Below are positions 7,719-38,801 of a stretch of 46,068 nucleotides of DNA, piece by piece; within the stretch, counting starts at the first letter, position 1; every line of letters begins with the position of its first letter. Source of the stretch: Escherichia phage vB_EcoP-720R6; the sequence record ON470605; one strand, given 5' to 3'. The notes beneath the pieces are model-generated. The model searched no databases, had not been told where the DNA came from, and saw only the letters and a program-made list of their open reading frames with translations. The translations under genes and the position numbers were made by a program.

Positions 7719-7733
7719 TTAGTATAAAAAAGC
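7719..7733. other. attR common core (lambda 15-bp core GCTTTTTTATACTAA, seen as reverse complement)
   Basis: TTAGTATAAAAAAGC at 7719-7733; flanked on the ybhB side by the attB B' arm sequence (AACTTGAGCGAAACGGGAAGG as reverse complement). Confidence 0.88.
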
Positions 7734-29466: not shown

Positions 29467-29542
29467 TGGTGCTGGTTAACGGACTTGAACCGCTACCCAT
29501 TCGCTTACAAGGCGACTGCTCTACCATTGGAGCTAAACCAGC
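29467..29542 (-). tRNA. tRNA-Thr (anticodon UGU), CCA encoded
   Basis: Manual cloverleaf: acceptor GCTGGTT/AACCAGC, D-arm GCTC-CAATGGTA-GAGC, anticodon loop CTTGTAA, T-arm with TTCAAGT loop, discriminator A then CCA. Confidence 0.7.
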
Positions 29543-29547
29543 ATATT

Positions 29548-29622
29548 TGGCGGGACAGCGTGGACTCGAACCACGATAAGAAGGTTAACAGCCTTCCGTA
29601 ATGACCTTTATACGACTGACCC
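29548..29622 (-). tRNA. tRNA-Asn (anticodon GUU), CCA encoded; one acceptor-stem mismatch
   Basis: Manual cloverleaf: anticodon stem GAAGG/CCTTC with loop CTGTTAA, T-arm CGTGG-TTCGAGT-CCACG, acceptor GGGTCAG/CTGTCCC with U4-U69 mismatch, 3-bp D-stem; 5 nt from tRNA-Thr. Confidence 0.6.
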
Positions 29623-32972: not shown

Positions 32973-34872
32973 TTAATACTCTGTCACGTTTTCCTGTCGC
33001 CACGCCTCGTCATATTCCGATTTCGGCATATTGGCGATGTAGCTATATGGCGATCCTGATTCAAGTTGCAGGAACTGGTGCGATTGCTCGTCAAGGAACA
33101 ACGGGACACCACCTTCCCAACCTTCACCGTTACGTTGTTTTTCAAGCATCAAAACAGATGCCGGAGATGCCAGTAGCTGTTCGTCCTTCTCTGACATCTT
33201 TTCACCACTCTGAACTCTCTGTAACGCTCTCTCGCGAGCCTTGTTACGCCAGATGATGAAAAGGTTGTCTGTCAGGTCTGTTATCGCTCCAGAGCCTTTT
33301 ACGTCCATTTTCCCGGTTGGTTTTTCTTCGCTGTCTCCTTTTCGCGAGTGAGTAACGAGAATGACGTGGGAGTTTGTTTTGTTTTTGANNNNNNNNNNNN
33401 NNNNNNNNGTCGCAAATCGAGTCAACAAACGCCTTCTGCCCGTTATAGTCATCGTCGCCTATGCCACATTTCATCAGGCTGTCGATGATGAATAACTGGA
33501 TGCCGTATCGGCGGCGAGCGTAGTCGAATATTTCGATCAGCCTGTCGGCTTTCGCCGTTCCGGTCAGGCCAAACACCCAAAGTCTTTCGTCATAAAATTT
33601 AAATGCAGAGTCAATTTCCAGCACTGGCGGCATCTTGCAGCACGTTGCCTGACGGGTAAGTCGCTTAAGGAGAATGCCTGGCTTCAGCTCAAGTGACGCG
33701 ATGCACGTCTTCACACCCTGACGCATTGCCTCAAGTGCCATATGCCCGACAACCTCCGTTTTTCCGTGACCGTTCACACCATTGACCAGCGTCAACTCGG
33801 CCTCACGGAACTGGAATTTATCTGCGAGAGATTCCCACGGTGGATTAAACAGATACTGCTGCTTGCCGTAGAAAGCGTTGATAGTGTCCTGGTAAAACTC
33901 TCGCGCGCTGTAGAGTTCTTCAGGATCGAAGTAGGATGCCGTGCCGATGTACTGCCAGATTTCATCCTCGGTAACACCGTTCATCAGGCATTCGTTGATG
34001 TCTTTGTACGGCAGAGTAACAAGACGGCAACGATGTTCACCGAGTCGGCTTGCGATTTCCCTTGCGGCTTCACGACCAACATCATCAACGTCCATCGAGA
34101 TGAATATTTCCTCAAACCTGTCGAGGTTGTGATACTCAAACTCAATCCACTGTTGCTTAGCGCCTTTCCCGCCACCAAACGGCACGGATAACGCCGAGAT
34201 GCCGTATTGCGCATAGCTCATACAATCAATTTCGCCTTCGCAAAGTACAACCGCCCTCACGCCAGCGTCCAGAGCCTGCCATCCGAACAGACAAGGTTCG
34301 CAATCACCTTCTGCCATAATGACTTTCTTCCCGTCCGGGCGCTCAGTGCTGATTCGCTTGACCTGCAACAACTCACCATCGCGTTTGTACGGAAGCACCA
34401 GTGCATCAAGTTCTCGTTCTCCATTCCACACCTTGCCGCTGACAACCTCGTAGCGCTTTACGATTTCTGGCGATATGCCACGCGATTGCAGGTACTCAAG
34501 ATGGGATTCTGTTCTGGTAACGTAGCGGGCGATTTTCTTGCGATCAGGTCTGGAGAATTTCTTCTCACGTTTGGCATCGAAATGGTGATCGTCATCCTTG
34601 ATACCGAGAAATGCTTTCGCTTCCTGCATAGCCTGATGCAGGTTAATTCCACGACATGCCATCCACAAATCAAGCATGTCACCGCCGTCTCCCTCAGCGA
34701 AATCAGCCCATTTTTTCTTGCCGCTAAGGTTGACCTTAAGGCTGTTTCCCTTGTCACCGTTGACGTTACCGGCAACCCACTCATGCCCCTCTTTCTTGCC
34801 GTTTGGCAACAGGTGCGGAGCCACCCTGTCAACCTGCGCCCAAAGCAGGTCGCTAAGTTCACTTGGCCTCAT
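32973..34872 (-). CDS. Replicative primase/helicase (toprim domain fused to DnaB-like helicase), interrupted by an assembly gap
   Basis: ORFs 33244..34872 and 32973..33452 both read into the N run; toprim VVLCEGEIDCMSYAQYG; helicase motifs VNGVNGHGKT, LFIIDSL, HVILVTHSRKGDSEE; the frame offset across the gap shows the N count is not the true length. Confidence 0.78.
33389..33408. other. Run of 20 ambiguous bases (assembly gap or masked bases)
   Basis: nnnnnnnnnnnnnnnnnnnn seen directly; the only ambiguous bases in the window. Confidence 0.99.
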
Positions 34873-34979: not shown

Positions 34980-35840
34980 TCACCTGTCGAAAAACACGTA
35001 GCCAGTTTTCGATACGGTGATTGCGGATGATGGTTTGGATTGTGGTTGAATGGTTTCTGGCTTTTCGTCGTTCCAGCGCTGACCGTTCAGGTAGCTCGAT
35101 GGTAACAACCTGTCGAATCCGAACTGCTTACCATTCCTGCATGCGATGTCTTCTGCCAGCATCGTGGCAAACTCGCTTGCCGTACCCCTGGTAGTTTTAC
35201 GCCATTCCCTGAACTGTGTTCTGAATGCCGAAGCTGCGTTTTTCTTCCCGGCCTTCCGCATGCCTGCACACCAGAATATTTCCTCGAATGCCTTGTCGGT
35301 TTCTTCGTGACGGTCAGATGATTTTTCACACTCCGTCCGAACACTTTCGGACATAGTGTTTTTATTATTTCTTTTTTCTTTTGTAATAGTTTCTTTTGTG
35401 TGTCCCTGTTTTGGTGACAGCGCTGTCACCGTTTTGGTGACACTTTTTGTCACCAATGCAGTGACATTATCACCAGAGTAGTGACACCCTTCGATTTGCC
35501 ATTCCTCGATGTTCTTGTTAGGCCCGATTTGCTGGCCTTCGCGAAGGATAACCTTCATCGCGATAAGCTCATTCTTGGCCTTGTTTACCTTCTGTCTTGG
35601 CAGCCTGGTAATTTGAGCTAACTGACTATCAGAGATGCGATCCATCTTTTTACCGTAGCCGTATGTTTTACGGCATATGGCGTGGGCAACCTTGCTCTGA
35701 TTTTTCGTTAAATCTGCGCCGATAAGCTCTTCATACAGGGCATTTGCAAGACGGGTATAACCATCTTCAACTTCTGCCACACGACGCTCCACAGGCCGTT
35801 GTGAAGGCCTTAAATGTGTTACGGTTGCAAGATTACTCAT
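34980..35840 (-). CDS. Replication initiator, lambda O-like N-terminal domain
   Basis: 286 aa; ...[56 protein letters not shown]... aligns with the lambda O N-terminus as recalled; C-terminus differs. Confidence 0.82.
35355..35495. repeat. Origin of replication inside the O-like gene: GTGACA-type inverted iterons plus AT-rich tract
   Basis: GGTGACAGCGCTGTCACC (18-bp perfect palindrome), GGTGACACTTTTTGTCACC, GTGACATTATCACC, GTGACACC at 35411-35490; AT-rich tract at 35360-35400. Confidence 0.6.
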
Positions 35841-35979
35841 GACCTTTCTCCTTCTGCATCAGCTTCACTTTTTCCAACTCAGCCCGGAATCGACCAGGCT
35901 GCTTGAAGCTGGACAGGAAGCGATCACGTAGTATGTGTTTGTGAATTTTGTCCTGGTAAGGACTGAGTTGTTTTGTCAT
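35833..35979 (-). CDS. Small basic protein (48 aa) between cII and the O-like gene
   Basis: Hand translation [48 protein letters not shown]; RBS AGGAG 5-6 nt upstream of ATG; stop overlaps the start of the O-like gene. Confidence 0.35.
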
Positions 35980-35989
35980 AATTACTCCT

Positions 35990-36066
35990 GTTGATAGATC
36001 CAGTAATGACCTCAGAACTCCATCTGGATTTGATCAGAACGCTCGGTTGCCGCCGGGCGTTTTTTA
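35990..36066 (+). ncRNA. oop: oop-like antisense RNA (overlaps cII 3' end)
   Basis: GTTGATAGATCCAGTAATGACCTCAGAACTCCATCTGGATTTGATCAGAACGCTCGGTTGCCGCCGGGCGTTTTTT matches lambda oop as recalled, ending in an intrinsic terminator. Confidence 0.7.
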
Positions 36067-36305
36067 TTGGTGAGAATCGAAGCAACTTGTCGTGCCAATC
36101 GAGCCATGTCGTCGTCAACGACGCCCCATTCAAGAACAGCAAGCAGCATTGAGAACTTTGGAATCCAGTCCCTCTTCCACCTGCTGATCTGCGACTTATC
36201 AACTCCCACAGCTTCCGCTGTCTTCTCAGTTCCAAGCATTGCGATTTTGTTAAGCAACGCACTCTCGATTCGTAGAGCCTCGTTGCGTTTGTTTGCACGA
36301 ACCAT
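36012..36305 (-). CDS. cII: Transcriptional activator CII
   Basis: Internal ATG at 36305 of ORF 36012..36365 gives [74 protein letters not shown]..., essentially lambda CII. Confidence 0.93.
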
Positions 36306-36384
36306 ATGTAAGTATTTCCTTAGATAACAATTGATTGAATGTATGCAAATAAATGCATACACCATAGGTGTGGTTTAATTTGAT

Positions 36385-36416
36385 GCCCTTTTTCAGGGCT
36401 GGGATGTGTAAGAGCG
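36385..36416 (-). promoter_or_regulatory. nutR (boxA plus boxB)
   Basis: Plus-strand GCCCTTTTTCAGGGC (boxB GCCCTGAAAAAGGGC on minus) and TAAGAGCG (boxA CGCTCTTA on minus), immediately after the cro stop. Confidence 0.75.
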
Positions 36417-36424
36417 GGAATGTC

Positions 36425-36640
36425 TTAAGCGGCTTTGTGTTCCGGCGGGAACACGTCATCAAGACTGACTTTTGCGCCCAACTTGTTTAGGCACTCAACA
36501 AGAGCACGGCATGTTTTAAGGTCTGGGAAGCGACGACCAGATTCCCAATGTCCGATAGCTCCCTGTGTGCATCCAACTGCCTTAGCAAGTGTTGTTTGAG
36601 AGATATTCAGTGACTCTCGATATTTTCGTAGGTTGCTCAT
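36425..36640 (-). CDS. cro: Cro-like repressor (HTH, non-lambda specificity)
   Basis: Internal ATG at 36640 of ORF 36425..36811 with RBS GGAGGG; MSNLRKYRESLNISQTTLAKAVGCTQGAIGHWESGRRFPDLK...; recognition helix similar to cI. Confidence 0.78.
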   Translation of the reverse strand: MSNLRKYRESLNISQTTLAKAVGCTQGAIGHWESGRRFPDLKTCRALVECLNKLGAKVSLDDVFPPEHKAA

Positions 36641-36751
36641 ATGCCCTCCATAGTAACCATGAAACAATAATACGATATGTACTTTTAGAATGCAAACAAA
36701 AAATACATCTTGTGCATGGATGGTTTTAGTACAGAGCGTAATAATAAGGGT
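36641..36751. promoter_or_regulatory. OR/pR/pRM region; candidate pR -35 TTGCAT (36690-36695) and -10 TATTAT (36667-36672) on minus strand; operator-like TACGATATGTACT at 36671-36683
   Basis: Divergent cI/cro spacer; the GTAC-containing motif recurs in the pL region (AGTACAAATCGTACT). Confidence 0.5.
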
Positions 36752-37411
36752 ATGAAAATGAAATGGTATGAACTGGCTAGATCCAGAATGAAAGAGCTCG
36801 GCATAACTCAAGAGAAGTTAGCTGAAGAGCTTGGTATGACGCAGGGTGGAATTGGTCACTGGTTGCGCGGATCTCGTCATCCATCTCTTGACGAGATTGG
36901 TGTGGTGTTTAAATACCTTGGTATTGATAACGTCTCATTCAACCACGACGGTACATTTTCACCTGTTGGCGAATACTCATCTGCCCCCGTTAAAAAACAA
37001 TATGAGTACCCTGTTTTTTCTCATGTTCAGGCCGGGATGTTCTCGCCTGAGCTTAGAACCTTTACCAAAGGTGATGCGGAGAGATGGGTCAGCACAACCA
37101 AAAAAGCCAGTGATTGTGCGTTCTGGCTTGAAGTTGAAGGTAATTCCATGACCGCGCCAACAGGATCCAAGCCAAGCTTTCCTGACGGGATGTTAATTCT
37201 CGTTGACCCTGAGCAGGCTGTTGAGCCAGGTGATTTCTGCATAGCCAGACTTGGTGGTGACGAGTTTACCTTCAAGAAACTGATCAGGGATAGCGGTCAG
37301 GTGTTCCTACAGCCACTAAACCCGCAATATCCAATGATTCCATGCAATGATAGCTGTTCCGTAGTAGGGAAAGTTATCGCCAGCCAGTGGCCTGAAGAGA
37401 CATTTAGTTAA
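36752..37411 (+). CDS. cI: CI-type repressor (N-terminal HTH, C-terminal LexA-like S24 autopeptidase domain), non-lambda immunity
   Basis: ATG 36752 or 36758 inside ORF 36710..37411; [15 protein letters not shown]; C-terminal domain with GNSM (Ser nucleophile) and FKKLIRD (Lys). Confidence 0.82.
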
Positions 37412-37442
37412 CAGCCTCACAACTCTAAAACACACAACAATA

Positions 37443-37470
37443 ACCCGACCTTAGCGTCGGGTTTTCTTTT
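37443..37470 (+). terminator. Intrinsic terminator downstream of cI
   Basis: ACCCGAC-cttagc-GTCGGGT followed by TTTTCTTTTT, about 30 bp after the cI stop. Confidence 0.6.
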
Positions 37471-37536
37471 TCCAAAATATAAACCCATTAAATACAAAGC
37501 GTTATAAAAAACTAATTATATTTAGAACATTTTGTA

Positions 37537-37565
37537 TTGACTCGATAAAGTACAAATCGTACTAT
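37537..37565 (+). promoter_or_regulatory. Candidate pL (-35 TTGACT, 17-bp spacer, -10 TACTAT) with overlapping OL palindrome AGTACAAATCGTACT (37549-37563)
   Basis: Sigma70-like hexamers with canonical spacing upstream of nutL and N; palindrome with AGTAC arms overlaps the spacer and -10. Confidence 0.55.
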
Positions 37566-37604
37566 TTAGCCATCAGCAGGACGCACTGACCACCATGAAG
37601 GTGA

Positions 37605-37635
37605 GGCTCTTAAAAATTAAGCCCTGAAGAAGGGC
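37605..37635 (+). promoter_or_regulatory. nutL (boxA-like GGCTCTTA plus boxB GCCCTGAAGAAGGGC)
   Basis: boxB hairpin at 37621-37635 preceded by a boxA-like element, upstream of N. Confidence 0.8.
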
Positions 37636-37903
37636 AGCATTCAAAGCAGAAGGCTTTGGGGTGTGGTGAAGCCAGCTAGTCACTGGCAAGTGCTTACCTA
37701 CTGTTGAGCGGTGAAGCGCTCCCAACGCTAGCAATAGCGTGGACGAGATGGGGAGCCGCGGGCGATAAGGCCGCCATAACGCGCACGTTGTCGCATGGAA
37801 AAATCGCTGGGGTGCCGGTTATACCCCTCCGAATGAGACTCAACAAGCTGGAGCTAGACTACCAGCCACCACACCACCAAAGCTAACTGACAGGAGAATC
37901 CAG

Positions 37904-38801
<898 letters not shown>

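Follow-up and report, generated by a model that had tools for sequence, protein, structure and literature searches.

Predicted VT2-Sakai-type immunity region set among lambda-like elements in a P22-like prophage of Escherichia coli

The 46,068-nt stretch of DNA analyzed here in full (the window) very probably carries, in what appears to be an intact P22-like prophage at the lambda att site, an immunity region comprising a lambda-style CI/Cro bistable switch of the VT2-Sakai type (cI2c/cro4) with operators of the phage L family. The region is a mosaic, as the initial annotation had recognized, with a non-lambda immunity specificity lying within lambda-like N, nutL, nutR, cII and oop. Judged by its CI and Cro matches, it is not an uncharacterized immunity type but the already known type of VT2-Sakai, Stx2 II and Nil2. 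Operator binding, promoter usage and immunity behavior are all inferred from homology and layout.

The window aligns collinearly (99.95%) with the E. coli Ecol_AZ159 chromosome, running through uvrB, the bio operon and ybhB and then into a P22-like prophage with genes for tailspike, ejection proteins, P22 capsid, portal, terminase, lysis, Q, nin, a toprim primase/helicase and a replication protein. At the prophage end, positions 7719-7733 contain the lambda att core, GCTTTTTTATACTAA. A 1.6-kb immunity stretch is 100% identical in several E. coli isolates. An engineered lambda imm hybrid was considered and rejected, since the DNA is found in wild E. coli chromosomes within a P22-like prophage. 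The closely related prophage of Ecol_AZ159 harbors an IS insertion beside N.

At the center of the region are two divergent genes, cro on the minus strand and cI on the plus strand, with 117 bp in between:

36425-36640, minus strand: cro, 71 aa, all-helical HTH_3 type with recognition helix TQGAIGHW (ORF list and Pfam)
36758-37411, plus strand: cI repressor, 217 aa from the ATG at 36758 (ORF list, Pfam and alignment with lambda cI)
to about 37000, plus strand: cI N-terminal HTH domain, VT2-Sakai type
37001-37405, plus strand: cI C-terminal S24 domain, lambda's, 93.8% nucleotide identity

Cro matched Pfam HTH_3 (E 1.5e-12), and cI matched both HTH_3 (E 8e-11) and Peptidase_S24 (E 9e-29); the choice of cI start codon is uncertain, with candidates at 36716, 36752 and 36758. 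The recognition helices, TQGGIGHW in cI and TQGAIGHW in Cro, are alike yet unlike that of lambda cI (QGGIGHW here versus QSGVGALF), just as the initial annotation had stated. Since the HTH domains of cI and Cro share 35% identity, the two proteins are homologous, as in phage 434, whose repressor and Cro are homologous HTH proteins with a common recognition helix. BLASTP of Cro against lambda Cro gave no alignment at E <= 100, and the N-terminal 80 residues of cI are weakly similar to lambda cI. The C-terminal domain of cI is lambda-like, with 135 of 137 residues identical to lambda cI in pairwise alignment (about 98% at the amino acid level); the description of cI and cro as non-lambda thus stands for Cro and for the N-terminal domain of cI, and fails for the C-terminal domain, leaving cI half non-lambda. 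Alignment with lambda cI places the cleavage site at Ala92-Gly93 and the catalytic dyad at Ser130 and Lys173, with VQAGMF, GNSMT and FKKL all kept. A PDB sequence search revealed no structure of this specificity; the best match to Cro was 28tn, annotated as "lambda repressor-like protein" (E 2.6e-16), followed by the N-domains of P22 c2 and lambda (E ~1e-3).

Six near-palindromic putative operators of 17 bp each were located by reference to sites annotated as putative operators in related GenBank records. Together with the predicted promoters and terminator, they are arranged as follows:

36667-36696, minus strand: candidate pR (TTTGCA, 18-nt spacer, TATTAT; consensus scan), overlapping OR1
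36668-36684: putative OR1, TAATACGATATGTACTT, overlapping the pR -10 and spacer and containing the GTACA(A/T)ATCGTA core
36701-36717: putative OR2, AAATACATCTTGTGCAT, abutting the predicted pRM -35; homologue of the VT2-Sakai operator at AP000422 12149-12165
36727-36743: putative OR3, TAGTACAGAGCGTAATA, overlapping the predicted pRM -10 and spacer; homologue of the VT2-Sakai operator at AP000422 12123-12139
37442-37463, plus strand: predicted intrinsic terminator ending the cI transcript (hairpin and T run; terminator scan)
37490-37506: putative OL3, AAATACAAAGCGTTATA, kept relative to the Stx1 phage while the flanking spacers have diverged
37523-37539: putative OL2, TAGAACATTTTGTATTG, overlapping the pL -35
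37537-37565, plus strand: candidate pL (TTGACT, 17-nt spacer, TACTAT; consensus scan), overlapping OL2 and OL1
37548-37564: putative OL1, AAGTACAAATCGTACTA, overlapping the pL spacer and -10 and containing the GTACA(A/T)ATCGTA core

The six sites share the half-site WARTACR, in which A5 and C6 are invariant over the 12 half-sites. In 46 kb there are exactly two copies of GTACAWATCGTA, one at 36671-36682 on the minus strand and one at 37550-37561 on the plus strand, against none expected by chance (100 shuffles), and they form the centers of OR1 and OL1. The GTACA(A/T)ATCGTA core previously noted in the pL and pR regions is therefore confirmed, and its interpretation as a putative operator motif is supported, with the full set amounting to six sites instead of two. 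When about 46,000 window positions were scored with a weight matrix derived solely from Salmonella phage L and an Erwinia prophage, and free of window sequence, the six sites took the first six places, with OR1 in first or second place. Alignment with the Stx1 phage of strain Morioka V526 revealed a phylogenetic footprint, in which conserved half-sites contrast with divergence in the central 3 bp and between the operators. Center-to-center spacings are 33 bp for OR1-OR2, 26 bp for OR2-OR3, 25 bp for OL1-OL2 and 33 bp for OL2-OL3, and OR1 lies 880 bp from OL1. Taken with the genes, these predicted sites provide features by which a lambdoid CI/Cro switch is recognized, namely a repressor with HTH and S24 domains, its cleavage site and dyad, a divergent Cro, and tripartite OR and OL.

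Both the motif and its spacing recur in the OL and OR regions of related phages, as would be expected of true operators and in line with the earlier proposal:

Salmonella phage L: Cro 70%, helix TQGAIGHY; OR spacings 26 and 34 bp; OL spacings 25 and 30 bp
Enterobacteriaceae prophage: Cro 80%; OR spacings 26 and 34 bp; OL spacing 26 bp, with only two OL sites found
Erwinia prophage: Cro 77%; OR spacings 26 and 33 bp; OL spacings 25 and 30 bp

Across E. coli, phage L and the Erwinia prophage, the spacing is thus kept at 26 bp for OR3-OR2, 33-34 bp for OR2-OR1, 25 bp for OL1-OL2 and 30-33 bp for OL2-OL3, whereas lambda operators are spaced 20-24 bp apart throughout. From these conserved spacings it follows that the lambda-like close pair is OR2-OR3, not OR1-OR2.

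The candidate pR occupies the position of the putative pR annotated in VT2-Sakai and in the Stx1 phage. In the VT2-Sakai record, the putative pRM has its -35 element abutting OR2 and its -10 element within OR3; transferred to the window, this would place the pRM start near 36751-36754. The center of OR2 would then lie at approximately -42 from the pRM start, which is lambda's activation geometry. On the other side of cI, positions 37434-37469 are 88.9% identical over 36 bp to lambda 35799-35834, the terminator downstream of rexB, and lambda 35835-37232 is without counterpart in the window. As the cI stop is separated from OL3, the first OL site, by only 78 bp, there is no room for rexAB, and the reading of cI as followed directly by a terminator and pL in the absence of rexA/rexB holds.

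The extent of the lambda-like DNA was determined by comparison with lambda (NC_001416), which yielded the following segments:

35972-36418: start of O, oop, cII, tR1 and nutR, ending 6 nt beyond the lambda cro stop; 98.4% lambda identity
36419-37000: cro, OR and cI N-domain; no lambda similarity
about 37470-37570: OL/pL; no lambda similarity
37571-37665: pL transcript start through nutL; 98.9% lambda identity
37857-38227: N; 96.0% lambda identity (nucleotide)

The elements assigned within and between these segments are:

36012-36305, minus strand: cII, lambda-like (Pfam Phage_CII, E 5e-48)
36036-36063, strand opposite cII: oop terminator (terminator-like site in the scan)
36385-36416, minus strand: nutR, with boxA CGCTCTTA at 36409-36416 and boxB GCCCTGAAAAAGGGC at 36385-36399, both identical to lambda
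37605-37635, plus strand: nutL, with boxA GGCTCTTAA and boxB GCCCTGAAGAAGGGC (direct comparison with lambda)
37666-37856, plus strand: N-leader variant, 191 nt, not lambda-like
37904-38227, plus strand: N antiterminator, lambda-like, 107 aa (Pfam N36, E 1.5e-26)

Lambda homology resumes at 37571, where the pL transcript of lambda begins, and nutL differs from lambda by one change in boxA (GGCTCTTAA versus lambda CGCTCTTAA), its boxB being lambda's. The cI, cro, cII and N genes are all full length in the window. By this comparison the foreign DNA falls into two specificity patches with lambda-like DNA between them, and a third, unrelated patch occupies the N leader. The initial annotation had suggested that the cassette was swapped as one unit, and this is contradicted by the lambda-like cI C-domain and terminator that separate the two patches. 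Its description of the flanks as lambda-like is accurate for nutL, N, nutR, cII and oop, and does not extend to the 191-bp stretch of the N leader, which is a different allele. This variant stands in place of about 80 nt of lambda sequence, is flanked on either side by one half of a conserved long stem, and has a fold z-score of -3.75; it matches neither lambda nor phage Louie and is 100% identical in Sf6, HK544, mEp043 and others. Rfam returned nothing for region 37400-38000 at E <= 1, and two tRNAs only for the whole window at the gathering threshold, so the variant corresponds to no described RNA family. The phages mEp213 and CurroJimenez, which share this N-leader allele, were considered as members of the same immunity type and rejected, given a Cro identity of 53%, another recognition helix and another operator motif.

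Comparison of cI and cro, which the initial annotation had read as non-lambda, with known immunity types identified the VT2-Sakai type as the match. CI is identical to VT2-Sakai CI at 209 of 216 residues (97%), with residues 1-43 including the HTH identical, and Cro shows 98.6% identity to VT2-Sakai Cro. The same six 17-bp sites are annotated, together with pL, pR and pRM, as putative in VT2-Sakai (AP000422) and in the Stx1 and Stx2 II phages (AP005153/4), and the window operators differ from the annotated VT2-Sakai and Stx1 ones mostly in the central 3 bp. Nil2, the Stx1 phage, Stx2 II, 2851, the PA series and 2B8 share the cro-cI core at 93% identity, while a 1.4-kb region reaches 99.4-99.6% identity in phages Louie, Dewey and vB_EcoP-683R2, and 98% in phi458. 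The cro-OR-cI N-domain module, at an identity of at least 90%, is present in 773 of 5426 complete E. coli genomes, or about one in seven, and the 90% cluster of CI holds 1686 member sequences. Louie, Dewey and vB_EcoP-683R2 were all isolated as phages, the first two, which are P22-like, on E. coli K-12 (PMC12243541). Smith et al. 2012 described the cI2c/cro4 type, including a C-terminus identical to lambda's (PMC3430580), and lambda CI has been grouped with a Stx-phage CI clade by Fagerlund et al. 2022 (PMC8951638). For binding of lambda CI to the six VT2-Sakai operators, Sedhom and Solomon 2023 obtained in vitro values of 3.7-6.4 uM, compared with 0.2-0.35 uM for lambda CI on its own OR1 and OL1 (PMC10742460). 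In the searchable literature, we found no direct binding, footprinting or immunity studies of the VT2-Sakai-type or phage L repressor, no direct measurements of operator affinity, cooperativity or induction threshold for the former, and for Nil2 only sequence listings; the lambda CI experiments on VT2-Sakai operators were the sole related work to emerge.

On the basis of this layout, a mechanism close to that of lambda can be proposed. CI dimers would bind the six 17-bp near-palindromic operators through the WARTACR half-site, with occupancy of OR1 and of OL1/OL2 expected to block pR and pL, respectively. CI at OR2, abutting the pRM -35, would probably activate pRM, and OR3, by overlapping pRM, would allow the promoter to be turned off at high CI. 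Cro, with its homologous HTH and near-identical recognition helix, is predicted to bind the same sites and to repress pRM in lytic growth. The lambda-type C-domain of CI would provide dimerization, pairwise cooperativity and OL-OR looping over about 880 bp; lambda-like cooperativity between OR1 and OR2 is an assumption, because their 33-bp spacing exceeds the 24 bp of lambda. RecA-stimulated self-cleavage of CI at Ala92-Gly93 by Ser130/Lys173 would render the switch SOS-inducible, and outside the two specificity patches N, nutL, nutR, tR1, cII and oop may be expected to work as in lambda. A lysogen should consequently be immune to VT2-Sakai-type phages (e.g., Louie, Dewey, Stx2 II, 2851) and sensitive to lambda, 434 and 21. 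Strict heteroimmunity to lambda is likely, and the weak binding of lambda CI to VT2-Sakai operators argues for heteroimmunity (PMC10742460).

The same measurements are pertinent to an alternative in which the cassette has lambda or partly overlapping immunity by virtue of the shared CI C-domain and the ability of lambda CI to bind the operators. Lambda CI does shift all six VT2-Sakai operators in EMSA (PMC10742460), and the C-terminal domain of the window CI is about 98% identical to lambda's; however, that binding is in the micromolar range and 10 to 25 times weaker than on lambda OR1/OL1 (PMC10742460), the recognition helix is QGGIGHW as opposed to QSGVGALF, and Cro is unrelated to lambda Cro. 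Moreover, no match to the lambda operator consensus TATCACCGCCAGTGGTA within 3 mismatches occurs in the window and, conversely, a motif scan of the lambda locus picks up no lambda operator, making lambda or partly overlapping immunity most improbable. Alternatively, the GTAC repeat might have arisen by chance or serve some unrelated purpose in AT-rich intergenic DNA, for example as a restriction or methylation site, in keeping with the result for the loose 13-mer RTACRNNNYGTAY, which, with one mismatch allowed, has 9 matches versus 10.6 expected and is not enriched window-wide. This count is uninformative, the informative measures being the clustering of the matches and a proper weight matrix: five of the nine fall within the two divergent-promoter regions, which make up about 215 bp of 46 kb, and the independent matrix puts the six sites on top. 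The exact 12-mer is present twice where none is expected, and position, number and spacing are kept across genera while the surrounding DNA diverges, so that we give this explanation almost no credence.

Decay of the switch to a non-functional remnant in a cryptic prophage is likewise very unlikely. The VT2-Sa cI allele has been reported as defective owing to a premature stop (PMC3430580), and the Ecol_AZ159 relative carries the IS insertion beside N mentioned above. In the window, however, cI, cro, cII and N are full length, and the six predicted operators, the two promoters and the terminator are likewise undamaged; the cassette matches those of free phages at 99.4-99.6% identity, and the prophage contains a full P22-like set of structural, lysis and replication genes. 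A VT2-Sakai-type CI/Cro switch in an apparently intact prophage remains the preferred reading.

The 33-34 bp spacing of OR1-OR2, combined with a lambda-identical cooperativity domain, is unexplained by lambda's model. We consider it rather unlikely, though conceivable, that the switch is wired unlike lambda's despite sharing its cooperativity domain, and that CI2-group repressors form mixed dimers or tetramers in polylysogens. If true, the altered wiring could change the cooperative filling of sites and the induction threshold of VT2-Sakai-type Stx2 prophages. Given that the CI C-domain is about 98% identical to lambda's, the repressors of heteroimmune CI2-group prophages could mix, and such mixed oligomers, if they form, would couple the stability of heteroimmune prophages in polylysogens. 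The cassette itself is a textbook modular exchange in lambdoid phages, of a type that is catalogued and common. Its value is modest and lies in providing a natural "minimal" VT2-Sakai immunity region, with no cargo between cI and OL and with a lambda-like N/cII context. Because of this lack of cargo, the lambda-like context and the presence of a near-same cassette in the K-12-infecting phages Louie and Dewey, it would be a convenient non-toxigenic model for operator affinity, cooperativity and the induction threshold of a major Stx2 prophage's repressor.

Among known systems, the closest are the members of the cI2c/cro4 group, i.e., VT2-Sakai (Sp5, E. coli O157:H7 Sakai), Stx2 II, the Morioka V526 Stx1 phage, Nil2, 2851 and 1717, which share with the window identical HTH regions, six operators at homologous positions with the same spacing, and the lambda-like cI C-domain. 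In the Stx phages, additional ORFs spanning 1.5-2 kb separate cI from OL, whereas in the window the terminator and OL come straight after cI, and the Stx phages have HK97/HK022-like N and cII with different nut sites, whereas the window flanks are lambda's; the OL region is 77% identical overall, the differences lying outside the half-sites. Phage L, whose immC is the classical heteroimmune relative of P22, has the same half-site, the same number of operators, a P22-like backbone and a similarly short OL-OR distance of about 870 bp without a rex-like insert, and differs in its Salmonella host, in proteins that are about 70% identical, and in an N and cII-equivalent that are P22-like and not lambda-like. 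With lambda the region has in common the divergent cI/cro arrangement, tripartite OL and OR of 17-bp operators, an OR2 adjoining the pRM -35, the post-cI-operon terminator, the cI C-terminal domain, nutL, N, nutR, cII and oop. In contrast, the cI N-domain, the operator sequence and the N-leader allele differ, rexAB is absent here, Cro is of the HTH_3 fold class unrelated to lambda Cro, OR1-OR2 spans 33 bp as opposed to 24 bp in lambda, and OL and OR are 0.9 kb apart as opposed to 2.4 kb. Of the four hallmarks of lambda immunity, namely the cI N-domain and helix, Cro, the operator consensus and rexAB, none is found in the window by these comparisons. As in imm434 and imm21 hybrids and in the modular theory of lambdoid phage evolution, the specificity segment reaches from the pL transcript start to the end of cro, and it is this segment that is traded between genomes homologous elsewhere. 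The region described here, unlike those laboratory hybrids, is a natural mosaic in a P22-like prophage, and its specificity is neither that of 434 nor that of 21.

Outside the VT2-Sakai-type cI/cro switch itself, the window carries features located as follows.

7719-7733: the lambda att core in exact form, GCTTTTTTATACTAA, directly following ybhB and lying at the prophage edge
29467-29622, minus strand: phage-borne tRNA-Thr (tgt) and tRNA-Asn (gtt) genes, between the Q antiterminator and holin
33389-33408: 20 consecutive N, masked or unresolved, within the replication-module gene for the toprim primase/helicase
37666-37856: a 191-nt N-leader allele, separating nutL from the ribosome-binding site of N
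38220-38723, minus strand: a 167-aa ORF directly downstream of N, on the strand opposite to the pL operon

With the att core at its edge, the P22-like podovirus prophage thus sits in the lambda attachment site, beside the bio operon. The toprim primase/helicase ORF is split by the N run in the mechanical ORF list.

Inspection of the region between 36701 and 36758 revealed that database records disagree on the start of cI. PGAP and the record of an Stx1 phage place it at the ATG at 36716, giving a 231-aa ORF whose start codon falls within the putative operator OR2, while the Nil2 and VT2-Sakai records begin cI at 36758 (217 aa), with an AAGGG Shine-Dalgarno sequence. A near-leaderless transcript from the predicted cI promoter pRM, in the manner of lambda, would be compatible with a third possible start, the ATG at 36752.

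On the pL side, the 95-bp leader is identical to that of lambda except in the boxA of nutL (37605-37613), which reads GGCTCTTAA in the window and CGCTCTTAA in lambda. The N-leader allele that lies beyond nutL is unrelated to the 80 nt occupying the same slot in lambda, and is flanked by a conserved long stem with the halves GGCTTTGGGGTGTGGTG and CACCACACCACCAAAGC. The allele is present at 100% identity in Sf6, HK544, HK446, HK633, mEp043, mEp213, Sf101 and CurroJimenez; it is annotated as a "hypothetical protein" in CurroJimenez and, in the short record EF120455 of HK544, is covered by a feature labelled generically as "immunity region"; it carries no annotation in Sf6, HK446, HK633, mEp043, mEp213 or Sf101. 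Its predicted fold is stronger than those of shuffled sequences (z -3.75), and it has no match in Rfam.

The 167-aa ORF downstream of N lies where lambda has sieB. Its protein falls in PHROG 1244, a family of unknown function (E 5e-53), and gave no significant match in a Pfam search. In E. coli strain Ecol_AZ159, whose chromosome carries a close relative of this prophage, an ISEc52 element has inserted into this gene, interrupting it.

The slot between cI and OL is empty in the window, whereas in lambda it is filled by rexAB and in the Stx phages by 1.5-2 kb of ORFs. In a related Enterobacteriaceae prophage (L008, 736-1641), this slot contains a 301-aa ORF, of unknown function and in the same orientation as cI. 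The spacing of the putative operators is kept across genera, at 26 + 33-34 bp in OR and 25 + 30-33 bp in OL, in the window (36668-36743 and 37490-37564) and at the relatives' loci compared with it (L012, L008 and L009). This departs from the 20-24 bp between lambda operators, although the cooperativity domain of the window CI is that of lambda.
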